IMG/VR virus record: IMGVR_UViG_3300009964_000029
DNA from: a virus
Strand: one strand, 5' to 3'
Length of the DNA stretch: 27,181 bases
The notes below the pieces were generated by a model. That model searched no databases. It saw nothing but the letters and a program-made list of their open reading frames with translations, and was not told the origin of the DNA. How positions within the stretch are numbered: position 1 is the stretch's first letter; every line of letters begins with the position of its first letter. Below are positions 1,308 through 26,528 of this stretch, one piece after another. The position numbers and the translations under genes were made by a program.

Positions 1308-1531
1308 TCGCCCTCCTTATCGTCGATAGTGACCAGGTGCCAGATGAGGCAGATTGAGGCGATGACCGTGCCCCAGAACAGGAGCATTGACAGTCCCATG
1401 AGAACGGTCATACCGTAATGCCAACGGCTCAAAGTGTCATTGAATAGTACGATGTTAAAGATAGTGAACAGTGCCATGCCCGCAGCACCTAATAAGTGCT
1501 TCGAGCGCGTAGACATGTTATGTTTTTTCAT
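1304..1531 (-). CDS. small membrane protein (75 aa, 2 TM)
   Basis: SD GAGGAGAATCTCTC-ATG; hydrophobic segments; ATGA overlap with neighbours. Confidence 0.55.
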   Translation of the reverse strand: MKKHNMSTRSKHLLGAAGMALFTIFNIVLFNDTLSRWHYGMTVLMGLSMLLFWGTVIASICLIWHLVTIDDKEGE

Positions 1532-2880: not shown

Positions 2881-3327
2881 TTAAAAGTCGGGTTCACCGA
2901 ACTCACTATTGTTTTGCGGTGCTGCCCACGTGTCATCAGACTGTGACCACGACTGCTGCACGGACGTCGGCTGTGAGGGCTGCGAGGATGTGGGCTGCGT
3001 GTTTTTAGGCAGTATCCCTACCGCGGTAGCCCTACAGCGCAGTGCAGTGGCCTCATGGCCGTCCCGAGCCGTATACCAGCGTTGCTGCAACGTCCCAGTT
3101 ATGAGGAGCTTTGACCCTTTTTCTGCGGCTTGGATTTGGGCGGCCGTGTAATCCGCTGAGGCTTCTACGTCAATCCACATCGTGCCCTGGTCCACCCAAT
3201 TATTAGACTTATCAAAGTAGCCTTGGCTGACCGCGACCAGGATTGACGTGACGCTCCCGCCGCTGTTAAAATGGCGTGTTTCCGGGTCCCGCCTGGCGTT
3301 ACCGGTAAACGTAACTTGTACACTCAT
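2881..3327 (-). CDS. ssb: single-stranded DNA-binding protein (SSB)
   Basis: OB-fold N-terminus VTFTGNARRDPETRHFNSGGSVTSILVAVSQ resembles bacterial SSB; Q/S/P-rich linker; acidic C-terminal tip SEFGEPDF (DIPF-like). Confidence 0.8.
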   Translation of the reverse strand: MSVQVTFTGNARRDPETRHFNSGGSVTSILVAVSQGYFDKSNNWVDQGTMWIDVEASADYTAAQIQAAEKGSKLLITGTLQQRWYTARDGHEATALRCRATAVGILPKNTQPTSSQPSQPTSVQQSWSQSDDTWAAPQNNSEFGEPDF

Positions 3328-4791: not shown

Positions 4792-4840
4792 AGGCTGTGT
4801 TCTTGTCCTTTCGCGCACAGCCTTTATTTTTTGTCTTTTT
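4792..4840 (+). terminator. intrinsic terminator oriented for + strand: AGGCTGTG-16 nt-CACAGCCT then TTATTTTTTGTCTTTTT
   Basis: perfect 8-bp stem plus T-run on + strand; antisense to early operon. Confidence 0.5.
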
Positions 4841-5372
4841 CCGTGTTCTCCTCGCTGTCTTTCTGACAGTATTCGATGATACGGCTTATCGCGGCGTTAA
4901 CATTTTTGATGTTGTGACAGTTAGCGGTGATCTTCCCGCACAAGTAGTCCATTTGGTGGCTGTTGTTTAGTGTCACGTCGTTCAACAGTTCATTGATATA
5001 CTCGATGTGGGCTGTCTTTTCCAGCCTGGCCTGGTATTGGGCGAGTATCATACGTGCGGCCTGCTGGACCGGGGTACCGTCCAACGGGATAGGCTTACCA
5101 TCAACTTTCATACCTAGTTCGTGTAACGGGCGGCCGGAGTACAAATATCCGAGTATAGCCGTATACAACCATACGTCTACCGTAGTTATTTGTTCTGGCT
5201 CCCAGCCGGCTTCTATCGCTACGATTGGGTTAGCGAAACCTCCGGCATACAATTCAACGAGCTTATCATACCCGTTCTGTCGGGCGGCTGACAGTAAACG
5301 GTAGTTATATTCACGTTCTGGACCGTCCCACGTATTCAAAAACAGTATTGAGGGGCTTGTAAAACCAGCCAT
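4824..5372 (-). CDS. hypothetical protein (182 aa)
   Basis: ATG 5372 preceded by AAGGCGGTCTTA (this SD-like sequence is also the 3' acceptor arm of the tRNA-like element); no recognisable domain. Confidence 0.6.
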   Translation of the reverse strand: MAGFTSPSILFLNTWDGPEREYNYRLLSAARQNGYDKLVELYAGGFANPIVAIEAGWEPEQITTVDVWLYTAILGYLYSGRPLHELGMKVDGKPIPLDGTPVQQAARMILAQYQARLEKTAHIEYINELLNDVTLNNSHQMDYLCGKITANCHNIKNVNAAISRIIEYCQKDSEENTEKDKK

Positions 5373-5376
5373 TAAG

Positions 5377-5448
5377 ACCGCCTTCCAAGACTTGCACTTG
5401 GGACCTCTACCATAGCTGGTAGCGCTCTATCTATTGAGCTAAAGGCGG
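5377..5448 (-). tRNA. tRNA-like cloverleaf, non-canonical (6-nt anticodon loop AGCTAT containing CTA); possible degenerate tRNA or mRNA-processing element
   Basis: minus-strand fold: acceptor CCGCCTT/AAGGCGG 7 bp perfect, U8 A9, D stem GCTC/GAGC, D loop AATAGATA, anticodon stem CTACC/GGTAG, variable AGGTC, T stem CCAAG/CTTGG, T loop TGCAAGT, discriminator T, no encoded CCA. Deviations: C1, no G19, no U33, G55. Confidence 0.4.
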
Positions 5449-5456
5449 AAACATCT

Positions 5457-5855
5457 TTAGAATAACACATTCTGCTGCTCATTGCAACCCTCCTGCAATT
5501 CACGTACATTTTCGCCCGTCTCACGATGCCACCACTGGGCAAACAGCGAACGGTGGCACAATTCTTTACGAATATCATCAAAACATAAGAGCACAAGCCG
5601 GTCGCACCCAGCAGAATCACAAATCTGCTGCAAATCTAAACGGACCCGCTCAACACCATAATCATTAAGCATACTCACATAATGCTGAGTAAACTCTTCA
5701 TCAGTACCTTCTAAAAACCAACGGCCGGGAGTCAACAAAAAACACTTATACTCCAAATCGTACGGCAAACGATAACGGGGAGCACTAAACGTAATCCGCA
5801 CAGGGACACCCTCAGAAGGCTTAAAATCACGATACCGATTCGTAAACAATAACAT
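5457..5855 (-). CDS. DUF488 family protein (YeaO-like)
   Basis: RYRDFKPSEG...APRY...DLEYK..LTP...LVLLCFDDIRKELCHRSLFAQWW resembles DUF488/YeaO; ATG 5855 with AAAGGA 9 nt upstream (track uses alternative TTG 5873 with GGGTGG SD). Confidence 0.55.
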   Translation of the reverse strand: MLLFTNRYRDFKPSEGVPVRITFSAPRYRLPYDLEYKCFLLTPGRWFLEGTDEEFTQHYVSMLNDYGVERVRLDLQQICDSAGCDRLVLLCFDDIRKELCHRSLFAQWWHRETGENVRELQEGCNEQQNVLF

Positions 5856-5899
5856 AACAATATATCCTTTCAACTATAACCACCCGACTTTTTAGGTGA

Positions 5900-5945
5900 T
5901 ATATTTATATTATAGTACACGGAGTAGACAAAAAACACAAGGAAA
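5900..5945 (-). promoter_or_regulatory. candidate leftward promoter for DUF488 operon (-10 TATAAT = rc of 5909-5914; weak -35)
   Basis: TATAAT on minus strand 41 nt upstream of TTG 5873; no good -35. Confidence 0.25.
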
Positions 5946-6024
5946 CCCAACCCACACAACAACCATATAACAAAAACCTATAACACAACACTCAACAACT
6001 AACAAAGAACAAGGAGAATAGAGT

Positions 6025-6108
6025 ATGTGGTTACCCTCTTCCCGCTCACCACCCAACTTAACGCTCTTTAACCCTCTTAATAAATTTCAACTTATCCACT
6101 TCACTTGA
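6025..6108 (+). CDS. 27-codon ORF with ideal SD (AAGGAG, 8-nt spacer) after CA-rich leader; possible micropeptide/leader peptide
   Basis: MWLPSSRSPPNLTLFNPLNKFQLIHFT; lies in 877-bp intergenic region. Confidence 0.2.
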   Translation: MWLPSSRSPPNLTLFNPLNKFQLIHFT

Positions 6109-6508
6109 TTCTTTTAGTTTGAGCTTGAGAGATACTTACCCCTTACTACACAACTAACATAGTCATGTCTTAAGGGGCAAAGTCTAAACGAAGGAACAAT
6201 AAGCAAGAACAAAACGGTAATCTTCACCGTCATCTCCTAGCCGTCGCCGTCGATTAAACTTAGATAGTGTCATTCTCTGTTAACTATCACAGCGGTAAAC
6301 TTGTGAGGGCACTTCCCAACAAATATGACCTTTGTATCGGAGCGTGTCGGCCAGCCCGTTTATGCCACGCCCAGCCTCACAATCTGTTAACGTTTCACCC
6401 TCTAACGGTGTTCACCCCGGGTTAGGGGGGGCAAGAATTTTATACAGCCCATCAACTTGCACATCAGGCTGTGTCGTATTATATGAGTAATTGTATCAAG
6501 CAATTATT

Positions 6509-6521
6509 ATAATTCAATATA
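6509..6521. repeat. 13-bp direct repeat ATAATTCAATATA copy 1 (candidate operator)
   Basis: exact 13-mer also at 6634-6646; the two flank the divergent promoter region. Confidence 0.5.
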
Positions 6522-6594
6522 ATTCTAGGTATTAAATTATGTATTAGTTATAGTGTAGCACACCCCCGTGACGAAAACAAACGAGACACACGAT

Positions 6595-6623
6595 TTGCAT
6601 TGTAGACAGAGTCGTGCTATACT
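6595..6623 (+). promoter_or_regulatory. rightward promoter TTGCAT-17-TATACT with TGn
   Basis: ttgcat 6595-6600, 17-bp spacer, tatact 6618-6623, tgc at 6615-6617; faces late genes. Confidence 0.45.
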
Positions 6624-6633
6624 GAATACTGTC

Positions 6634-6646
6634 ATAATTCAATATA
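6634..6646. repeat. 13-bp direct repeat ATAATTCAATATA copy 2
   Basis: exact match to 6509-6521, just downstream of predicted rightward TSS. Confidence 0.5.
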
Positions 6647-6674
6647 GTACTATGCACCCCGCCTGGAAGCCAAC

Positions 6675-6691
6675 CCCCGGACGGGGTTTTT
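6675..6691 (+). terminator. weak hairpin CCCC-GGAC-GGGG plus TTTTT between rightward promoter and first late gene (possible attenuator)
   Basis: 4-bp GC stem then 5 T. Confidence 0.3.
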
Positions 6692-6719
6692 AATAACCCC
6701 ATTTATCGAGTAAACGTGA

Positions 6720-6732
6720 TATAATATATAAT
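6720..6732 (+). promoter_or_regulatory. TATAAT hexamers (6720-6725, 6727-6732) abutting ATG 6733; leaderless-mRNA configuration
   Basis: no SD before ATG 6733; -10 ends 7 nt before start codon. Confidence 0.35.
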
Positions 6733-6930
6733 ATGGAACAAGAAACATACCTCACAGTCAAACAATTCGCCCAACTCATAAACACCCCCAAATACAACAT
6801 CTATAACTGGATATACGCAGGCAAACTACCTTACATCACCCTCACGGGCACCCACGCCATCAGAATCCCACTCAACAAAGCAATAACCCACCACCCCGCC
6901 ACCAAGCCAACAGAACAGGAAACACGATGA
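6733..6930 (+). CDS. HTH_17 (excisionase/MerR-like) DNA-binding protein, 65 aa; possible DNA-recognition part of small terminase
   Basis: LTVKQFAQLINTPKYNIYNWIYAGKLPYITLTGTHAIRIP matches HTH_17 pattern; ATGA overlap with next gene. Confidence 0.55.
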   Translation: MEQETYLTVKQFAQLINTPKYNIYNWIYAGKLPYITLTGTHAIRIPLNKAITHHPATKPTEQETR

Positions 6931-7319
6931 CAGAAAACCCTAAACCCCACCGCGACCCCAAAGGCCGCTTCCTCAAAAACACGCCCCCACCCAACCCCAC
7001 CGGAACAGGCGGATTCACCGACCACCCAGAACACCGCAACAACGGCCGATGGGACCACCACGCCAGCTACACATACAACCTCAACCGCTACAAAAACATG
7101 ACCAACAGCGAACTCGCCCAAGAAATCCAAAACATCGACAACCTCACCCAAGCAGAACAAACAGCCCTCCGCCTCATCATCGCATCAAAAAAAGAAAACG
7201 AACTCGCCTTCCGCAAATACCAAGACATCGCCGACCGAACAGAAGGACGCGCCCCCCAAACCATCAACCAAAACATCACCCAAACAGAACCCCCCCAAAT
7301 CAACATCACCTTCAAATAA
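6927..7319 (+). CDS. putative terminase small subunit
   Basis: N-terminal DPKGRFLKN...NPTGTGG resembles GRF.KGN..G TerS motif; coiled-coil segment; sits directly upstream of TerL. Confidence 0.45.
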   Translation: MTENPKPHRDPKGRFLKNTPPPNPTGTGGFTDHPEHRNNGRWDHHASYTYNLNRYKNMTNSELAQEIQNIDNLTQAEQTALRLIIASKKENELAFRKYQDIADRTEGRAPQTINQNITQTEPPQINITFK

Positions 7320-7341
7320 CCAACCGTAGCAGACGAAAAAC

Positions 7342-8616
7342 ATGGACTATATAATCCCCCAAGAATACGCCCCCCTCTTCTACTACACCCACCAACCATA
7401 CCCCGACTACCGATACTACGACTTCAGCGGAGGACGCTCCAGCGGCAAAAGCACCACCGTAGCACTCGCCATAACTCTCCAAGCAACCCAACAAAAAACC
7501 CGCATACTCTGCTGCCGCGAATACCAAAACAGCATCAAAGACAGCGTCAAAGCCCTCATAGAACAAATCATCACCGACAACCAACTCCCCGGATACACCA
7601 TACTCAACGACACAATCACCCACCAAAACGGCAGCCAATTCATCTTCAAAGGCCTCCACGACAACACCGAAGCCACCATAAAAAGCCTACACAACATCAA
7701 CATCTGCTGGGTCGAAGAAGCCCAAACCATCAGCAAACAAAGCCTCGACATACTCCTCCCCACCATCAGAACCCCCCACAGCATCATCATCTACACCAGA
7801 AACCCCCTCACCCCAACCGACGAAATCACCCTCCGACACGTCACCAACCCCACCCCAGAAACCGCAAAACGCACCTACCACAAACACGTCACCTACCGAA
7901 TACTCGAACGAGCAGGAATCCTCCCCACAGAAATCAAACACCAAATCAAAGAAGCCAAAAACACACCCGACTACAACCACATCTGGGAAGGCCAACCCAC
8001 ACAAAACCTCACCAACCAACTCATCACCTGGACCGAACTCACCCAAACCGAACACAACCCCCAACAAACAGGCGGCACAACCCTCGGCATAGACGTAGCC
8101 CGATACGGAAACGACCGCACCGCCATCGCCACCATACAAGGCAACACCCTAACAACCATCACCACCTGGCAACACGCCAGCATCACACAATCAGCACAAC
8201 GCATAAAAACCATATGCGGCACCCTCCCCAACCTCACCAGCATCAAAATCGACGACACCGGCGTCGGAGGCGGACTCACCGACATACTCACCGACATGCA
8301 CCTACCAGTCCAACCCATCAACTTCGGCAGCAAACCCACCCAACCCAAAAAATACGACACCACCATCAGCGAAATGTGGTTCACCTTCAAACAAAAACTC
8401 CCCACCATACGCATAAACCCCGAACTCACAACTAAGAACGAACTCTACACAGAACTCACCAACCGAGAATGGACCATCGACAACCAAAACCGTAGAGCCA
8501 TACAAAAAAAACGAGACTACAAACAGCAACAGCAAACAGGCAGCCCAGACCTCGCCGACGCAGTACTACTCGCATATTACCAACCCAAACGATTACATTG
8601 GAACGTTAGCGTATAA
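7342..8616 (+). CDS. terL: terminase large subunit (PBSX/XtmB-like, headful type)
   Basis: Walker A YYDFSGGRSSGKST as in PBSX-family TerL; size and position; extreme T/P/N/Q/H-rich composition. Confidence 0.85.
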   Translation: MDYIIPQEYAPLFYYTHQPYPDYRYYDFSGGRSSGKSTTVALAITLQATQQKTRILCCREYQNSIKDSVKALIEQIITDNQLPGYTILNDTITHQNGSQFIFKGLHDNTEATIKSLHNINICWVEEAQTISKQSLDILLPTIRTPHSIIIYTRNPLTPTDEITLRHVTNPTPETAKRTYHKHVTYRILERAGILPTEIKHQIKEAKNTPDYNHIWEGQPTQNLTNQLITWTELTQTEHNPQQTGGTTLGIDVARYGNDRTAIATIQGNTLTTITTWQHASITQSAQRIKTICGTLPNLTSIKIDDTGVGGGLTDILTDMHLPVQPINFGSKPTQPKKYDTTISEMWFTFKQKLPTIRINPELTTKNELYTELTNREWTIDNQNRRAIQKKRDYKQQQQTGSPDLADAVLLAYYQPKRLHWNVSV

Positions 8617-8656
8617 TAAACAGTAACAACCATAACAGCAGAACAAGGAACCTTTT

Positions 8657-10816
8657 ATGAGCCGTTTCACTAACTGGATACGCAGAACATTCACCAACAC
8701 ACCACCAGTATCGAATCCGCTCACCACGAACTGGATGTACGGCAACCAGAACATAGGAACAGACAGCGACACATACGATAACCTGTTCCCATATATTAAC
8801 AGTATCAGCCAACGATTCGCCACAATACGCCCCTACGCTACCAGTGACGGCACAACCCCCCTCAACCCGCAGCCCGTAGCCATGCAAGCACTCTACCGGC
8901 CAAACAACATGATGAGCGGCCGAGAATTCCTCTACACCATCAGCAGTAGCATACTCACCCAAACGCACTTGGATATTCTCGTCTGGACATCAACCCCCTA
9001 CGGCGTGCAACCAGGCGGCCAGATAACATCTGACAATATTATTGGTTACACGATACTCCCCCCACAGTCACGTCAATATTCGAGTAACATGACGGACTGG
9101 ACCTACCAAGTCACCATGGCTGATAACACTACACACACATTCACCCGTAGTGAGGTTCTCAGCCTCACCTATAGCCACCATCCAGCAGACCTGACCGTTG
9201 GTATCAGTCCAGCAATGACCGTCAGCAAGTGGGCCACCGTAGACGACATGATAGCCGACTACCAGCGAGGATTCTTCAGTAACGGTGCAATACCCGCCGG
9301 AATGATGAGCATCACCGCTGAAAACAGTGACGACTACACTCACACTAAAGACCGGTTGGAACACGCCTTCCAAGGAGCAGCAAACACCAACAGTATTGTC
9401 TACAATATGCGCCCCATCGACCCTGCAACCGGCACCCCCAGCACACAAGAAAAACTCACCTGGACACCATTCCAACAACCCAACAACACCCTCGACATTA
9501 ATACAATAAACAGTATCGTCTCCACCAAACTCGCTGGAGCAATAAACGTACCAGACATTATCCGAGGCATAGACCACGGACAAACCTACAGCAACGCACA
9601 AACCGCAGAACGAGCATTCACCGAAAACACACTCGACCCACTGTGCGCTCTCGTGTGGGATAAATTCCAATTCGAACTCGACCGTATAACAGGAGGCCTC
9701 GACTACGCTATAACCTACCAACTCGAACTACCTGTACAGTCAGATATCGAACACGTGCAAGCGGAAACACAGCAGATACAAACACAAACGTTTATCAGCC
9801 TGGTACAAGCCGGCGCAACACCTGAACAGGCTGCAAGCGCTCTTAACCTTCCTGACACGTATCGGGACATCACTCTCACCCCAAACCCTGAACCGGAACC
9901 AGAACCAGAACCGGAACCAAACCCAGTCACGGAACCACCGGAACCCCCAACCCTGGAACCCTCACCGGTCTCAACACTGGTCTCAACCAGGAGCAGTAAA
10001 CAACCCAACCCCAAACCCGAAACAGCCAGCCAAAAACTCCACACAACCAGCAGGAAACTCCTCCACACCCTCACCCGAATAGCCCAACGCCACCCTAACG
10101 CTCTCACCAACAATGAGACTACAGAACTCGACAATGCCGCCAACACGTGGATAGCCAGCAGCATCAGCATACTCACAGCGATTATGCTCACCCACGCCGA
10201 AACTACGGGCAGGGATATCATCAAGCAAACCCTTAGCGCTGCCGAATCCAACCCAACCCTGAAACAAACCCTCACCAGTATGAGCGCAGACACAATCAAG
10301 GCTCTCTACACGTGGAACCAGCTACCAGACAACGTACTCACTATGTACCGGCAGCACTTGCAGCACGCTATCAAACAGTACGTGGATTACCATTACCAGC
10401 AGATACAGGATATTCTCGCTCAGGCAGCCATCGAACAGTGGCCCGCTCCACAACTGTCGGACGCGCTCAACCAGTACTGCGACGGGCAGGCAAGCCAAAT
10501 GATAGCCGAAAACGAAACAACCCACAGTCAACGGTTAGCAGGATTGTACGCCGCAGAAAACATCACCCGGCATGTGAACGGAATCACCATTAGCAAACAG
10601 TGGAAAACTACGAGCAAACACCCGTGCCCCTTCTGCGAGCATATGGACGGAACTACCATACCCATCACAAGCAGTTTTATGCAGGAAGGAGACAGCATCA
10701 CCATTAACGACACGACCTATGGTAACGATTACGAAGACAAGATAGTAGCGGACGGGCATCCAAACTGCCGGTGCGTGCTCCTCTACCACGTAGAAAGCGA
10801 AAGCGTGAACGTATGA
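8657..10816 (+). CDS. portal protein fused to C-terminal MuF/SPP1 gp7-like head morphogenesis domain
   Basis: 719 aa; PE-repeat linker TPNPEPEPEPEPEPNP; C-terminus CPFCEH...HPNCRCVLL typical of MuF/gp7 family. Confidence 0.7.
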   Translation: MSRFTNWIRRTFTNTPPVSNPLTTNWMYGNQNIGTDSDTYDNLFPYINSISQRFATIRPYATSDGTTPLNPQPVAMQALYRPNNMMSGREFLYTISSSILTQTHLDILVWTSTPYGVQPGGQITSDNIIGYTILPPQSRQYSSNMTDWTYQVTMADNTTHTFTRSEVLSLTYSHHPADLTVGISPAMTVSKWATVDDMIADYQRGFFSNGAIPAGMMSITAENSDDYTHTKDRLEHAFQGAANTNSIVYNMRPIDPATGTPSTQEKLTWTPFQQPNNTLDINTINSIVSTKLAGAINVPDIIRGIDHGQTYSNAQTAERAFTENTLDPLCALVWDKFQFELDRITGGLDYAITYQLELPVQSDIEHVQAETQQIQTQTFISLVQAGATPEQAASALNLPDTYRDITLTPNPEPEPEPEPEPNPVTEPPEPPTLEPSPVSTLVSTRSSKQPNPKPETASQKLHTTSRKLLHTLTRIAQRHPNALTNNETTELDNAANTWIASSISILTAIMLTHAETTGRDIIKQTLSAAESNPTLKQTLTSMSADTIKALYTWNQLPDNVLTMYRQHLQHAIKQYVDYHYQQIQDILAQAAIEQWPAPQLSDALNQYCDGQASQMIAENETTHSQRLAGLYAAENITRHVNGITISKQWKTTSKHPCPFCEHMDGTTIPITSSFMQEGDSITINDTTYGNDYEDKIVADGHPNCRCVLLYHVESESVNV
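9888..9926 (+). repeat. hexanucleotide (gaaccr) repeat encoding (PE)n linker in portal
   Basis: cctgaaccggaaccagaaccagaaccggaaccaaaccca. Confidence 0.7.
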
Positions 10817-11001
10817 TAATCCGCTGCTCTAAGTGTGGCCGGTTCCTTGGTGAAAACCACCAGCCCACCATCATTATGCTTAAATGTCCTAACTGCCACT
10901 CATACAGCGAATACAAACTCAAACCCCTCACCACTCATGGTATACTAGAGTTTAAGCCCACCATGAGCGTTGTAAACGCGGGCCACGCAGAAACACACTA
11001 A
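10813..11001 (+). CDS. Com-like Cys4 zinc-ribbon protein (62 aa)
   Basis: ATG 10813 overlaps portal stop (ATGA); MIIRCSKCGRFLGENHQPTIIMLKCPNCHSY aligns with Mu Com IRCKHCNKLL...IEIRCPRCKRHI (C-x2-C-x17-C-x2-C). Confidence 0.5.
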   Translation: MIIRCSKCGRFLGENHQPTIIMLKCPNCHSYSEYKLKPLTTHGILEFKPTMSVVNAGHAETH

Positions 11002-11011
11002 AGGAGAGAAC

Positions 11012-12844
11012 TTGTCCTACCGTAAACAGTTCACCGCTCACACAACACCCAGTAGCGATGACGAGGGATACACCCTCCAATTCCTAGCGAACAGTGGAAC
11101 CGTTATGCAAGACAACGGATACACAGTAGACCTGGACACGCTACTCGTCCCCATACAGGACGGTGAAATGCGCCTCGTGAACCAGCTTGAAGACACAGAC
11201 ACGCTTAGTATCCCGCTTCTACTCGACCATGACATGAGCGTTAACAGTCAAGCTGGTGTCATACGCAGACTCTGGGTAGACGAGGACGGGCTGCACGCTG
11301 AAGCACGGTTAAGCCACGTACCCAGCGGCGAACTAGTCCGACAACTCGCCCTGGACGGGGCCCTCACCAGCAGTTTCAGTATCACTATCGACACACCAAC
11401 ATCTCCCGGTAACGACAAAATCATACACGACAGTCAACTCGTGGAAATCAGCGTCGTGTATCGTGGAGCAGACTATAAAACAGCTTTCACTAGTATTAAC
11501 AGTAAAGGAGACCATACAGTGGAAACAATTGAAAACAAGCTCAACAGCGATGAGAACAAAACCCTGACAGACGCTATCGAGCAGGCCACGCAGGCTATTC
11601 AGCAGGCTGTGGACAAGCTTACCGACGATACAGATAAGCCAGACGATAAGCCGGCCGATACAGATAAGCCAGACGATAAGCCGGCCGATACAAAGCCTGT
11701 ACCACCGGTACAGAACAGCCATCAGCCACAGTTCAACAAAGCTAACACTACCGTCACACAGGCATACACGGCCAGCAGCCGCACGTATCTCGACAGTAAA
11801 CAGGCCATGAACGACTACGCTAACCTCCTGTTCAACAGCCGAAACGATGACCCACAGGCCATACACGAGGAATGGGCCGCTTACGCTCGTAAGAAGCTCG
11901 GTATGCAGTCCTACGCTTCCACTGTTAGCGGCGCAGACTATCTCATACCAACAGGTGTTGTTACGAAGATAGAAGACGTGTTGAACACAGCCGGTTCGGG
12001 TATCTGGCAGGCTGTCAACCACACAGGCATGGACGCTCCTATCACTTTGACTGCTAACATGCTCGGCCTGGACAGTGACGATGGTCGTGCCCACGGGTAT
12101 CCAGTCAGCGAGTACGGGAACAGTAAGAAGCAGGAGAAAATCCAGCTTAAGAAACGCCAGTTTGTTACAGACTACGTATATAAGTATCTCCCCGTACCGA
12201 AGGGCGAACTGAGGCGTACCATGCAGAACCCACAGGTCCTGCTGAACTATATCCTCCAGGAGCTTCCGGCACGTCTTATTCAGACAATGGAACGCGCTAT
12301 CGTTATGAACACTGATTGGACTGACCTGACGATGTTTAAGTCAGTGTACGCAGATTCGCTTCAGACTGATGCGGCTGCTGGGGCGGAAACGATAGCAGGC
12401 CAGCGGTTTGCTGCACAGTACACACCAGCTAACAACGAGACACTGTTGGAATCGTTTATCGCTGCTAACGCTCTTGTTACAGCTGAAGGGGACAGGATAC
12501 TGGTCACCAGTCGTGAGAACGCTGCCAAGATGAAACTCGCTAAAGGTTCCGACGGACAGTTCCAGGCACCCCTGGGCGCTGACTATGCGGGCCTTATCGG
12601 CGTGTCTAAGATTGTCACCCCGGAATGGTGGAACGCGACTGACAGTAAGAACGCTCAGGGTGTTATCTTCGTCCCGTCCGCTTACAACGTGTACGGTGAT
12701 GATGGTATCCAGGCGTTCACGAACTTCAAACTGGAAACCAACGAGAATCAGTTCCTTCAGGAAATTTTCACTGGTGGCGGTTTGGCTAAGCTCAAGTCTG
12801 GTGTTGTTGTGAAACCGGCAGCAGCTGCTCCGGCTGGCCACTAA
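11012..12844 (+). CDS. prohead protease (S78-like) - scaffold/linker - HK97-fold major capsid protein fusion
   Basis: TTG start after AAAGGAGAG; N-terminus LLLDHD...GLHAEARL...DGALTSSFSITI...EISVVYRGADYKTAF resembles HK97 prohead protease; tandem DTDKPDDKPA linker; C-terminal MCP-like. Confidence 0.7.
   Translation: MSYRKQFTAHTTPSSDDEGYTLQFLANSGTVMQDNGYTVDLDTLLVPIQDGEMRLVNQLEDTDTLSIPLLLDHDMSVNSQAGVIRRLWVDEDGLHAEARLSHVPSGELVRQLALDGALTSSFSITIDTPTSPGNDKIIHDSQLVEISVVYRGADYKTAFTSINSKGDHTVETIENKLNSDENKTLTDAIEQATQAIQQAVDKLTDDTDKPDDKPADTDKPDDKPADTKPVPPVQNSHQPQFNKANTTVTQAYTASSRTYLDSKQAMNDYANLLFNSRNDDPQAIHEEWAAYARKKLGMQSYASTVSGADYLIPTGVVTKIEDVLNTAGSGIWQAVNHTGMDAPITLTANMLGLDSDDGRAHGYPVSEYGNSKKQEKIQLKKRQFVTDYVYKYLPVPKGELRRTMQNPQVLLNYILQELPARLIQTMERAIVMNTDWTDLTMFKSVYADSLQTDAAAGAETIAGQRFAAQYTPANNETLLESFIAANALVTAEGDRILVTSRENAAKMKLAKGSDGQFQAPLGADYAGLIGVSKIVTPEWWNATDSKNAQGVIFVPSAYNVYGDDGIQAFTNFKLETNENQFLQEIFTGGGLAKLKSGVVVKPAAAAPAGH
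11627..11686 (+). repeat. 30-bp tandem repeat x2 in capsid-fusion linker
   Basis: gatacagataagccagacgataagccggcc x2 (DTDKPDDKPA x2). Confidence 0.75.
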
Positions 12845-22904: not shown

Positions 22905-23828
22905 GTGAAGGATTGGGATAAACTGGAGCCGGACGAATACCGGCTCATCAACCGGCATTACACGAAAGGCCGGCAAGGCCACAGGATAGACAAGATTATC
23001 CTGCACCACAACGCGGCGAACCTGAGTATTGGGGGATGCTGGAGTGTGTGGCAGTCGCGGCCAGCAAGCGCGCAGTATCAGGTGGACGTAGCCGGCCGTA
23101 TCGGCCAACTGGTGCACGACGCTGACACGTCGTGGAATGCGGGCAATTGGAACGCGAATGTCACGAGCATTGCTATTGAACATGCGGACATGACTACCAA
23201 CCCCTGGAGCATTTCGGGAGCGACATTAGATAATGGGGCGCACCTGGTGGCAGCATTGTGCAAAGCGTACAAGCTGGGACGGCCAATATGGCTGAGGAAC
23301 GTGTATCCGCACAGCTATTTCAGTGCGACCGCTTGTCCTGCTAGTATTCGTGATTCGCAGCGCGAGGAGTATATGCAGCGTGCTCAGGCGTATTACGACC
23401 AGATGACCGTCAACAGGATGGAGACTGTTATCCGCCCGGCTATCAACCGGGTCATCAATCGGGTGGTTAATACGGTCGCGTCGAGCGTGCCGCAGATTAC
23501 GGTAGACGGGTATGCGGGGCCGGCAACGATTAAACGCCTCCAGCAGCTGCTGGGCACGCCCCAAGACGGTATCGTGTCAAGTCAGCCCGTTGTCAATAAG
23601 CGGTATCTGCCTAACGCCACAAGCGGCTGGCAGTGGGTTGGCCGGGCGTCGGGTAGTACGATGGTACGCCGTTTGCAGGAGCGGCTGGGTGTCACTGTGG
23701 ACGGTCTTATAGGCCGTGACACTATCAAAGCGTTGCAGCGTCGGCTGGGTGTGACTGATGACGGTATCGCGGGGGCAGCAACCTTCCGCGCTTTGCAGAC
23801 CAATCTCAACCGTAACAGACTGTGGTAA
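22905..23828 (+). CDS. endolysin: N-acetylmuramoyl-L-alanine amidase (amidase_2/PGRP) with three C-terminal PG_binding_1-like repeats
   Basis: GTG after AAGGAGA; ...IILHHNAANLSIGGCWSVW...ATACPASI; repeats DGYAGPATIKRLQQLLG / DGLIGRDTIKALQRRLG / DGIAGAATFRALQ. Confidence 0.8.
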   Translation: MKDWDKLEPDEYRLINRHYTKGRQGHRIDKIILHHNAANLSIGGCWSVWQSRPASAQYQVDVAGRIGQLVHDADTSWNAGNWNANVTSIAIEHADMTTNPWSISGATLDNGAHLVAALCKAYKLGRPIWLRNVYPHSYFSATACPASIRDSQREEYMQRAQAYYDQMTVNRMETVIRPAINRVINRVVNTVASSVPQITVDGYAGPATIKRLQQLLGTPQDGIVSSQPVVNKRYLPNATSGWQWVGRASGSTMVRRLQERLGVTVDGLIGRDTIKALQRRLGVTDDGIAGAATFRALQTNLNRNRLW

Positions 23829-25051: not shown

Positions 25052-25933
25052 CTACCAGTTTTCGGGTTCTACCGGAACAAGATTAGTAATCAAGTCCGAA
25101 TATCCGAGAACTTCCTGTACTTTAGTGTAATGGTCTTTAATCTCGTTGACGATATCGTCACGTGGTATCGTCAGATAAACGTGGCTGAGGTTCAGGTTCC
25201 TGATACGGTCATCGTAGAACGAGAAATACAGTGTTTCTAAATCATCGTTGACAGCGAAGTATTGGAGGACCTGCGGCTTATACTTGTCCGGAACGAAATC
25301 ATATTCGCGTGTAGCTGTCCGTTTGTCGTGGAATAACGTATTAAACAGCATGTCAGTTTTGTTCTTTTTCCAGATGAGAAACGGGAGCACGTACATGAGA
25401 TGGTTGGCCGTGCCGAGGCTCTTGCATTCAATAGCCCATAACGGTTTGTCGCCTGTCTCAGTAACGTCTGGGCTGACAGCTATGCGCGGCTCGTCGTCCC
25501 TGGCCCACATTGTCGGCTCGTAGTCCACTGTGTCTTCACTGATTCCCAGTTTTTGGACGGTGATTCCTGCGTTAACGTTTTCTAGCCGGTGACCGCGTTC
25601 TGCGGGATTCTCGTACTCTGCGTCTGGCGTGGCGTAGAGTTCTGCGAGGTACTGCCAGAAACCTACGGGCGTTTTCAACCGCTGGTTATCGAGGTCGGCG
25701 AGGTCGGCTTTTTTCTTGTATTCTTCGGCTTTTTTCTTGTATTCTTCGGCCTTTTCTGTTGTCTTGGCTTTCTCAGCGGCGGTGAGGGCTTTAGCTCTCA
25801 TATCAAGGATACGACTAACATTGGTTTGAGCATACTCTTCAAGAGCGGTCGAGCCGATTTTACTGCCTGTGATGAGACCTCGGCGGGCCTCCAACCATTC
25901 GTCAGTGTTCTGCTGTACATTAATTGTGTGCAT
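25052..25933 (-). CDS. YqaJ-like viral recombinase exonuclease (lambda Exo fold)
   Basis: N-terminal NTDEWLEARRGLITGSKIGS motif; overlaps ERF gene end by 14 nt; contains 21-bp tandem repeat (KKAEEYK x2). Confidence 0.7.
   Translation of the reverse strand: MHTINVQQNTDEWLEARRGLITGSKIGSTALEEYAQTNVSRILDMRAKALTAAEKAKTTEKAEEYKKKAEEYKKKADLADLDNQRLKTPVGFWQYLAELYATPDAEYENPAERGHRLENVNAGITVQKLGISEDTVDYEPTMWARDDEPRIAVSPDVTETGDKPLWAIECKSLGTANHLMYVLPFLIWKKNKTDMLFNTLFHDKRTATREYDFVPDKYKPQVLQYFAVNDDLETLYFSFYDDRIRNLNLSHVYLTIPRDDIVNEIKDHYTKVQEVLGYSDLITNLVPVEPENW
25706..25747. repeat. 21-bp tandem repeat x2 inside YqaJ gene
   Basis: ggcttttttcttgtattcttc x2. Confidence 0.7.
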
Positions 25934-26528
25934 TGGTGATTTCCTTTCGAATCAGTTCAACAGCTGACACGGGGATATCGGTAGGTTTGCTGATATCGTG
26001 GCCTGCGTATTTACGGGCGATGGTTTTCAGGTCAGCGTTATACTCTTTGGCAAGGTCGATGAGGCTGATAGCAACGTCCTGTGTGATTGTCTGCGTGCGA
26101 TTGTCAGTGAACTGTGTGGAATAGGTTGTGCTTGCTTTGCCGTCGTCGTCCTTGTCTGGGTAGATTCCGAGGGCGGCGTAGAGGCTGTAACGGCGGGCGT
26201 AGGTGACTGCGCTTCCGTTGGCTTGGCTGTCGGCTGTGTAGTAGAACGGGTATTCAGATACGAGTATTTCATCGTTGGCGTTGAAGATGTAGGTGCAGAC
26301 TTTAGCAATGGTCTTATTGCTGTCGGTTTCTACGAGTTCGACGGATTGGCGGAACATGATTCCGTGTTGTGCGAAAACCTGTTTGACGGTTTTGCAGAGT
26401 GTTCCGAGTGACAGGTATTTGTATGTGCGGTTCGCGCCGATTTTTGCCGCTTCGTCGGTGAGCATGTTCGGCATATCGACGAGCGCATTAATGTACGCTT
26501 GGTTGAGAGGCAGCTGTTGTTCAGCCAT
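25920..26528 (-). CDS. ERF-family single-strand annealing protein
   Basis: GANRTYKYLSLGTLCK...GSAVTYARRYSLYAALGIYPDKDDDG aligns with P22 Erf KYKYRSCEDIL...SSYARKYCLNGLFGIDDAKDAD; ATG after conserved leader of promoter copy 4. Confidence 0.75.
   Translation of the reverse strand: MAEQQLPLNQAYINALVDMPNMLTDEAAKIGANRTYKYLSLGTLCKTVKQVFAQHGIMFRQSVELVETDSNKTIAKVCTYIFNANDEILVSEYPFYYTADSQANGSAVTYARRYSLYAALGIYPDKDDDGKASTTYSTQFTDNRTQTITQDVAISLIDLAKEYNADLKTIARKYAGHDISKPTDIPVSAVELIRKEITNAHN

Follow-up and report, generated by a model that had tools for sequence, protein, structure and literature searches.

A tRNA-Arg-derived cloverleaf conserved between two early phage genes overlaps the ribosome-binding site of the downstream gene

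Why should a phage keep a transfer RNA (tRNA) fold intact after its anticodon has been lost? The question is raised by a 72-nt element of the IMG/VR virus record IMGVR_UViG_3300009964_000029, a stretch of 27,181 nucleotides that was analysed as a whole and is called the window hereafter. The element occupies the minus strand between a gene for a DUF488-like protein and a gene for a 182-aa DAM-like protein, and its last helix strand contains the Shine-Dalgarno (SD) sequence of the second gene. A preliminary description, made from the letters of the window, had noticed a tRNA-like cloverleaf at this place and had proposed for it a role as a processing signal, as a degenerate or suppressor tRNA, or as a translational regulator. 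We hold with high confidence that the element is a non-decoding derivative of a tRNA-Arg under structural selection; for its function, several readings of unequal probability are weighed below.

Read along the minus strand (5448..5377), the DNA of the element is CCGCCTT TA GCTC AATAGATA GAGC G CTACC AGCTAT in its 5' half and GGTAG AGGTC CCAAG TGCAAGT CTTGG AAGGCGG T in its 3' half, which as RNA gives CCGCCUU-UA-GCUC-AAUAGAUA-GAGC-G-CUACC-AGCUAU-GGUAG-AGGUC-CCAAG-UGCAAGU-CUUGG-AAGGCGG-U. The stems of 7, 4, 5 and 5 bp are made of 21 Watson-Crick pairs, as the preliminary description had claimed, and its inventory of further features is equally accurate for U8, A9, A14, A21 and the AGGTC variable loop, as well as for C1, the 6-nt loop AGCTAT, the T loop TGCAAGT and the missing CCA. 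It erred on the D loop, from which it reported G19 to be absent: in a gapless alignment to the canonical orthologues (ACCGGATA vs AATAGATA) the lost guanine is G18. Its statement that the element lies between early genes and shares their orientation is right, with the omission that this orientation is the minus strand. The upstream gene reaches its stop codon (5457) 8 nt before the element, and the ATG of the 182-aa gene (5372) stands 4 nt past it.

The tRNA-derived cloverleaf is real and far beyond chance. It is the minimum-energy fold of the isolated 72-mer (-29.2 kcal/mol, 57% of the ensemble), it persists when the RNA is folded with 50-nt flanks, and none of 200 shuffled sequences is equally stable (z = -3.89). 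In the minimum-energy fold A32 and U37 form a sixth pair, which turns the anticodon arm into 6 bp closed by a GCUA tetraloop, and the acceptor and T stems provide a stack of 12 bp (7 + 5), all paired and co-varying. Infernal, run with permissive filters on 5200-5650, matches the element to RF00005 over exactly 5448-5377(-) with 48.0 bits (E = 2.6e-9; gathering score 29), and the covariance model R1 scores it at 75.5 bits. The outcome with ARAGORN depends on the settings: at 90% thresholds the program reports 'tRNA-??? (ct)', that is, a two-base anticodon in a 6-nt loop, and by default it reports nothing. Neither default ARAGORN nor a gathering-mode Rfam scan of the whole window makes a call at the element, and both results are false negatives. 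No second tRNA-like element was found by an Rfam scan of 5850-7400 or by a filter-free R1 scan of the whole window.

The origin of the element is revealed by its relatives, which are phage contigs (L001 onward) encoding homologues of either neighbouring gene. The same slot, the gap between the DUF488-like and DAM-like genes, carries a tRNA-Arg(UCG/CCG) in about 55 related phage contigs, and the homologous elements that the preliminary description had suggested looking for at this position are thus present, either as tRNA-Arg or in the 6-nt-loop form. L001 is identical to the window throughout the aligned region; L002, L005 and L016, with 89-94% nucleotide identity in the DUF488-like gene, all contain the 6-nt-loop element; and more distant relatives have in the gap a tRNA-Arg that ARAGORN recognises (TCG in L003/L004 and L021, CCG in L018/L019). 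A profile scan of IMG/VR yielded 50 phage contigs, most of about 30 kb. All 49 with a complete slot carry a tRNA-Arg (48 TCG, 1 GCG), the 3' end of which lies 3 nt before the ATG (...GGGGCGG-U-CUG-AUG); in the fiftieth, L035, the contig end cuts the slot and the 3' half is visible. Common to all orthologues are C1-G72, a CCGC...GCGG acceptor core, the GCUC/GAGC D stem, U73 and the lack of an encoded CCA. The longer acceptor motif CCGCC...GGCGG is found in all except L003/L004, and the distance of 3-4 nt from the tRNA 3' end to the ATG holds in most orthologues, these two again excepted.

These orthologues form a graded series at one locus. At its start stand tRNAs with canonical D and T loops (ACCGGAUA, UUCGACU) and a 7-nt anticodon loop; L003 follows, with an AG/UGCAA elbow and an anticodon loop still of 7 nt (UUUCGUA); the window clade comes last, with the L003-type elbow, a 6-nt loop and no Arg anticodon. 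The element is an orthologue of a conserved phage tRNA-Arg whose anticodon, together with one loop nucleotide, was lost in a sub-lineage, and the earlier notion of a degenerate tRNA is vindicated to the extent that decoding features of a tRNA-Arg(UCG/CCG) have disappeared. As a tRNA gene changing jobs, the series offers a tractable natural case for the roles of non-decoding tRNA-shaped RNAs. Among the canonical-looking orthologues themselves, nearly all have C33 in place of the near-universal U33 (loop UCUCGAA in L021 and L025-L074), U33 being kept in L018 and L003, and two or three compensated anticodon-stem types coexist among otherwise near-identical tRNA-Arg genes.

Other searches returned little. 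Megablast of the locus against GenBank phages gave no match, blastn of the 72-mer gave short D-arm matches to unrelated tRNAs only, and nothing came of scanning IMG/VR with a single protein and with an exact 27-mer. A clade-specific DNA pattern had no match in 185,579 species genomes, and thus no host tRNA or prophage source. An attP site, or a tRNA fragment left at an integration site, was considered and rejected: the element forms a whole cloverleaf and is placed within an operon. No integrase was found among the 20 open reading frames (ORFs) scanned with Pfam, the recombination genes found being YqaJ and ERF.

Is the fold maintained by selection? In a structure-true alignment of 7 orthologues, all 147 pair cells hold standard pairs, 12 of the 21 pairs are altered on both sides, and no shuffle out of 500 matches any of five measures. 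With 14 orthologues, 99.7% of 294 pair cells are paired and again 12/21 pairs change on both sides, a pattern that provides the covariation-supported stems whose absence from homologues the preliminary description would have counted against the cloverleaf. Sliding the 3' partners to other registers leaves only about 36-56% paired. Acceptor pairs 5-7, for example, occur as CCC/GGG, CUC/GGG (with a U.G wobble), UCC/GGA and CUU/AAG.

The same holds within the window clade, which comprises four distinct sequences (window/L001 type, L002, L005 and L016) from at least four datasets. All of its 84 pair cells are paired, and its loops always have 6 nt of the form ANCURU (AGCTAT, ACCTGT or AACTGT), none with an Arg anticodon. 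Two types of anticodon arm exist, A (CURCC-AGCUAU-GGUAG) and B (YCCUC-AMCUGU-GGGGR); three double compensatory changes and one G.U change separate them, and both retain the 6-nt ANCURU loop. Further G.U changes occur in L016 and L005, and L002 differs from L005 by one more double change, from U-A to C-G. An assembly error behind the 6-nt loop was rejected, as the loop recurs in at least four independent datasets with three different sequences. When the window is compared with L002, only 2 of 56 positions of the tRNA body differ, against 23 of 108 four-fold sites in the two flanking genes (p = 0.002), and the body is under purifying selection since it shows fewer differences than these sites. 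The anticodon arm behaves in the opposite way: 9 of its 16 positions differ, above both the four-fold sites (p = 0.006) and the body (p = 6e-6), and it is either under diversifying selection or exchanged as a cassette.

These figures bear directly on the possibility that the element is a tRNA pseudogene, dead only recently, within an accessory module that is being eroded, and that its fold persists for lack of time or through the need for an SD sequence. The loss of the decoding essentials (6-nt loop, no anticodon) would fit such a history, and so would the independent deletions in the same module (L017/L020, L086, and 402 nt within the DAM-like gene of the window) and the complete absence of the module from the nearest cultured phage. 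Yet the three double compensatory changes and G.U changes between arm types, like the double change between L002 and L005, postdate the shortening of the loop; an SD sequence requires 4 nt, not four helices; and the change of the acceptor from GGGG to AAGG is compensated on its 5' strand. With no mismatch in any pair cell of the clade and a body more conserved than four-fold sites, a freely decaying pseudogene was rejected, and the milder version just described seems to us improbable. The module is nonetheless eroding in the window clade. In the deletion variants (L017:2000-2480, L020:2260-2740, L086:1813-2330) a truncated DUF488-like gene is joined to a DAM-like C-terminal remnant and the element is gone; in view of these natural deletions, we regard the module as accessory and as a deletion hot spot.

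Could the element still decode? Its 6-nt anticodon loop lacks U33, C35, G36 and a purine at position 37, and the triplet in its centre reads CUA in the window and L016 and CUG in L002 and L005. An atypical tRNA, or an amber (CUA) suppressor reading with a 6-nt loop, would be in keeping with the perfect acceptor, D and T arms, with an A18/G55 elbow that occurs in ordinary phage tRNAs, with the CTA of the window and L016, and with cloverleaf genes with 6- or 8-nt loops in other phage tRNA arrays. However, the loop closes to a tetraloop in the minimum-energy fold, the triplet varies between close relatives, and a literature search found no paper on natural 6-nt anticodon loops or on decoders that use them. 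All major genes of the window are intact under the standard code, none has an in-frame TAG, and TAG, the rarest stop codon, ends 2 of 33 genes. Arg codons are used about equally by the window and by those relatives in which the tRNA-Arg persists, which speaks against a working decoder and also led us to reject codon supply as the reason for the loss of the tRNA. The amber-suppressor role contemplated in the preliminary description is not upheld, given a CTA that is not conserved, a 6-nt loop without U33 and an ancestor that reads Arg CGN codons. Recognition by arginyl-tRNA synthetase (ArgRS) rests mainly on A20 and C35; since C35 is gone, charging by this enzyme is, under the established identity rules, unlikely. 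The element almost certainly no longer decodes, and we give the idea of a functional decoder very little credence.

Loops of abnormal size are not confined to this locus. ARAGORN labels as 'tRNA-???' well-folded cloverleaves with 6- or 8-nt loops at L012:10184-10254, 10336-10412, 10545-10618 and 11096-11169 and at L013:2134-2208, the last of which combines the loop CUGUGU with an AGAU/UGCAA elbow. Genes of this anticodon-less, tRNA-like kind may be more widespread among phages.

The elbow deserves separate treatment, as the preliminary description had counted it among the abnormal features. The element has A18 G19 with U54 G55 C56, not the canonical G18-G19 with U54-U55-C56. When the 8-nt D loops are aligned without gaps (ACCGGAUA vs AAUAGAUA), G18 is seen to be lost and G19 and A20 to be kept, and no member of the orthologous series has lost GG (read as G18->A) without also carrying U55->G. 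A scan by sequence pattern brought the AGAU/UGCAA combination to light in ordinary phage tRNAs as well, most of them Arg-UCU. Among 66 parsed phage tRNAs, G55 is strongly associated with a D loop lacking GG (30/3 vs 3/29, p = 8e-12, a value that is indicative only, the tRNA sequences not being independent); this count takes in all 18 tRNAs of the L006 array, only one of which had been picked by the search pattern. The co-varying 18/55 variant, being in use by ordinary phage tRNAs, is probably not a defect, and the elbow is probably intact through an alternative 18-55 contact. A UGCRA T loop (G55) with an AG D loop (A18) characterises the whole set of L006 and also occurs in L007-L015 and at L003:4906-4980. 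Such an A18/G55 elbow in whole phage tRNA sets may bear on the evasion of host elbow-directed enzymes or nucleases.

The elbow also touches on annotation. A 60-kb scan in E-value mode passed over the copies in L001, L002, L003, L005 and L016, as the gathering-mode scan had passed over that of the window. Probably the speed filters rely on a T loop of the canonical GUUCGA form, and if they do, standard pipelines will overlook tRNAs with a UGCAA T loop. A tRNA-like element of 48 bits that escapes both default ARAGORN and the Rfam gathering mode marks an annotation blind spot.

If the element no longer decodes, what is its fold selected for? One clue is the overlap with the ribosome-binding site of the DAM-like gene. 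An SD-like core stands 4-11 nt upstream of 24 of 29 genes in the window, its commonest form being (A)AAGGA with AAGG 8 nt from the start. The acceptor 3' strand supplies precisely this AAGG, 8 nt from the ATG, in agreement with the earlier claim that it doubles as the SD sequence of the 182-aa gene, the start codon of which is fixed by the conserved N-terminus MAGF(T/N)SPSI. This AAGG corresponds to acceptor positions 65-68 of the 72-nt element and pairs with positions 4-7, being fully paired in the fold. Relatives have GGGG where the window clade has AAGG; in the clade, G65 and G66 have become A and are compensated by changes of C6 and C7 to U, by which the helix is kept and the SD consensus is matched. 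The overlap is real and appears to be selected.

We favour a reading in which the conserved cloverleaf acts in cis, as an RNA-processing signal and as a mask over the SD sequence. As a full statement, mechanism included, it is in our judgement evenly balanced between right and wrong, and the processing and SD-masking role as such stands at or just under that level. We infer the following course. The element would be transcribed together with the DUF488-like and DAM-like genes and would fold into a stable cloverleaf, the acceptor helix of which would bury the AAGG of the DAM-like gene. Owing to its 12-bp acceptor/T stack and CCA-less 3' end, the host enzymes RNase P and RNase Z would cut it at 5448/5449 and after U73 (5377), respectively. 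Fold and cuts would separate the two cistrons, set the ends of both mRNAs and gate DAM-like expression, with either of two outcomes: the DAM-like gene would be silenced, its SD sequence being masked or removed, or the cut after U73 would detach the SD sequence and leave a near-leaderless mRNA, 5'-CUUAAUG.

Several observations are consistent with such a role. The layout is that of tRNA punctuation, with a tRNA-shaped fold between cistrons of the same strand, and a search for promoters and terminators among the DUF488-like gene, the element and the DAM-like gene found none that was convincing. In mitochondria, tRNA-like sequences define mRNA ends (PMC9181182). RNase P needs a 12-bp stack, accepts substrates in which the anticodon loop has been cut, and has some mRNAs and phage RNAs among its targets (PMC10731613); the acceptor/T-stem stack of the element is intact over this length. 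As in ribosome-binding sites sequestered by RNA structure, the SD sequence is base-paired in a stable local structure (predicted fold of -29 kcal/mol). Translational coupling by the ribosome terminating on the upstream gene was rejected as marginal, given a spacer of 8-14 nt that would probably place the helix largely beyond the reach of unwinding.

Other facts weigh against this cis role. Processing and masking alone leave unexplained why the anticodon arm is kept paired with a 6-nt ANCURU loop, and likewise why it has diverged beyond four-fold sites (9/16 vs 23/108). In L017/L020 and L086 deletions have taken out the element and parts of the two adjoining genes, and the DAM-like gene of the window lacks its catalytic-type motif; the module is dispensable, and selection may be weak or only recently relaxed. 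Moreover, tRNAs, mostly tRNA-Gly, recur beside distant genes that join the DAM-like domain to a GNAT domain, which hints at something beyond cis processing.

This recurrence leads to a reading in which the element acts in trans, as a non-decoding tRNA-like RNA that would be excised. It would then work with the DUF488-like or DAM-like proteins as their partner, substrate or cofactor, or divert a tRNA-targeting defence nuclease of the host as a decoy, and its fast-evolving arm would be the surface of interaction or evasion. We see this as possible and distinctly less probable than the cis role. It draws on tRNAs that immediately precede PF22555 genes in lineages that have diverged widely, on L076, which repeats the order DUF488-like, tRNA, DAM-like+GNAT, ParB-like, and on an anticodon arm that exceeds neutral-site divergence and yet is always paired. 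That most 7-nt-loop orthologues already have C33, not U33, points in the same direction, and phage tRNAs are known to change their anticodon loops in evading anticodon nucleases (PMC10264068). Against it, a GNAT domain is absent from the short DAM-like proteins found in the Arg lineage, the copy in the window has lost its NPPY-type motif, and ArgRS charging is not expected without C35. Nor is the association universal: two distant lineages (L079/80 and L084) have no tRNA upstream of the DAM-like+GNAT gene, and the candidate in L077/78 is not significant. The window also contains no target complementary to the arm; a guide or antisense role was rejected after a search of the window had found no match or complement of at least 9 nt elsewhere.

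Long DAM-like+GNAT-phage-like genes are spread over divergent lineages of phages and prophages and often have DUF488-like and ParB-like genes beside them; the tRNA genes and candidates found upstream of the long genes are listed in Table 1. Their recurrence suggests a functional link of tRNA and enzyme, the tRNA being partner, substrate or aminoacyl donor, and points to a possible tRNA dependence of this uncharacterised family. A bolder version makes the tRNA a dedicated part of a nucleic-acid-modification module (DUF488-like, tRNA, DAM-like with or without GNAT, ParB-like), in whose long DAM-like+GNAT forms the tRNA-Gly could donate its aminoacyl group to DNA adenine, the GNAT fold being used as in the Fem and L/F transferases, and the element of the window would be an anticodon-independent or vestigial partner. 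We judge this version unlikely, slightly more so than the pseudogene.

The DAM-like gene of the window derives from a 316-aa form by an in-frame internal deletion of 402 nt (compared with P0001 and with L002:5001-5951); the deleted segment includes a motif resembling that of N6-adenine methyltransferases, ANPPTY, and the motif-I-like VELYAGGFAN is retained. Searches of the PDB with the DAM-like protein and with a DAM-like+GNAT profile found no sequence relatives, and a literature search found no papers on PF22555/PF22559. For the upstream gene the DUF488 label holds in part: its own Pfam matches are sub-threshold (PF22751, E = 0.057; PF04343, E = 0.14), and a homologue reaches 8.6e-6. Its C-terminus is LF* in every relative and NVLF* in most.

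The window is a segment of a tailed-phage genome, as judged from Pfam matches of 20 ORFs (Table 1). The nearest cultured phages are the Bifidobacterium asteroides phages BlindUri1 and BlindBasel1 (large terminase, TerL, 54% identical), and BlindUri1, when examined, had no tRNA and no such element. Between the leftward early genes and the rightward helix-turn-helix and packaging genes, about 880 nt (5856-6732) contain no ORF of more than 52 aa; this region has promoter-like sites (e.g. 6535-6506 and 6517-6490 on the minus strand and 6594-6630 on the plus strand) as well as an A+C-rich tract at 5925-6010, and is probably a divergent control region. Over 5400-12600 the plus strand shows an extreme A+C bias, strongest at 6800-9000, which reaches 37% A, 38% C, 13% G and 12% T in the TerL coding sequence and fades across the portal and capsid genes. 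The bias is a property of the strand and not of codon choice, since the minus-strand DUF488-like gene is G+T-rich in its coding sense. It is common to L002 and L003 and weak in the IMG/VR relatives. The cumulative amino/keto skew has its turning points at about 5075-5450 and about 12572; the left turn is broad and lies near the element without falling sharply at it, whereas the preliminary description had the left edge of the A+C island coincide with the element.

Table 1. Coordinates of the element, its parts, annotated genes of the window, and tRNA genes or candidates beside related genes in other contigs
Feature	Coordinates	Strand	Remarks
tRNA-Arg-derived tRNA-like element, almost certainly non-decoding	5377..5448	-	72 nt; discriminator U at 5377; CCA not encoded
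Acceptor stem, 5' strand CCGCCUU (C1-G72)	5442..5448	-	partner 5384-5378
D arm: stem GCUC/GAGC, loop AAUAGAUA (A18 G19 A20)	5424..5439	-	stem invariant across orthologues
Anticodon-arm equivalent: CUACC/GGUAG, 5 bp, with 6-nt loop AGCUAU (5417-5412)	5407..5422	-	all 5 pairs co-vary
T arm: CCAAG/CUUGG, loop UGCAAGU (G55)	5385..5401	-	4/5 pairs co-vary across orthologues
Acceptor stem, 3' strand AAGGCGG	5378..5384	-	AAGG at 5384-5381 is the SD sequence of the downstream gene; 8 nt to ATG
Downstream gene, 182-aa DAM-like-phage1 (PF22555) protein	4824..5372	-	Pfam E = 1.6e-19
Upstream gene, 132-aa DUF488-like protein	5457..5855	-	homologues P0006-P0019
Large terminase	7342-8616	+	Pfam
Portal fused to C-terminal Mu-F-like head-morphogenesis domain, 719 aa	8657-10816	+	
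Prohead protease fused to major capsid protein, 610 aa	11012-12844	+	
Amidase endolysin	22905-23828	+	
SSB	2881-3327	-	
YqaJ	25052-25933	-	
ERF	25920-26528	-	
tRNA-Gly upstream of long DAM-like+GNAT gene (PF22555+PF22559)	L022:4180-4252 (L022/23), L024:3456-3531		
tRNA-Gly upstream of DAM-like+GNAT gene	L076:1426-1499		ends 1 nt before gene match
Near-threshold tRNA-Gly	L081:1419-1491 (L081/82)		27.8 bits
tRNA-like candidate without D arm, ending U-CCA	L083:~1375-1445		z = -3.9; not recognised by RF00005
Doubtful tRNA remnant	L077/78		not significant

How does the element compare with systems already described? With mitochondrial tRNA punctuation and the 't-elements' of plant mitochondria it shares a tRNA-shaped fold between cistrons, an intact acceptor/T stack and no need for decoding, and here too cleavage at both ends would determine where the upstream mRNA has its 3' end and the downstream mRNA its 5' end (PMC9181182). 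It differs in being encoded by a phage, in its descent from an orthologous and still canonical tRNA-Arg and in the SD sequence inside its acceptor helix, and its cleavage is a prediction. Phage tRNAs that evade anticodon nucleases (PMC10264068, PMC11464382, PMC11555353) resemble it in that its anticodon stem-loop changes fastest and its orthologues have C33; unlike the element, with 6 nt and no conserved triplet, they keep a 7-nt loop, a readable anticodon and decoding. Like phage pseudo-tRNAs, it is a tRNA by covariance model that fails the rules for anticodon loops and is skipped by default ARAGORN and by Rfam gathering scans; what sets it apart from them is compensatory evolution and above-neutral conservation after the loss of the anticodon.

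Two further comparisons concern masking and mimicry. The com/mom hairpin of phage Mu is an mRNA structure that sequesters a ribosome-binding site and controls a toxic DNA-modification gene. There, as here, the SD sequence of a gene of the DNA-adenine-modification type is held within a stable helix just before the start codon; the mask of the element, in contrast, is a whole and possibly cleavable tRNA cloverleaf, and no Com-like activator was identified. The mascRNA of MALAT1 is processed by RNase P and RNase Z. tRNA-like domains are found in the Y RNAs of bacteria and phages (PMC4201824). Like the element, these RNAs are non-decoding mimics of the acceptor, T and D regions of tRNA that make use of tRNA enzymes; they are not orthologues of one tRNA gene, however, nor do they lie between phage cistrons, and the element has no Ro60/Rsr context. 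In sum, tRNA-like processing signals, phage pseudo-tRNAs and structures that mask ribosome-binding sites are known kinds of element already. What is new at this locus is the orthologous series from a decoder to an anticodon-less and still selected cloverleaf, with an SD sequence built into the acceptor helix, together with an anticodon arm that is hypervariable yet always paired and the recurrent pairing of a tRNA with an uncharacterised DAM-like family.

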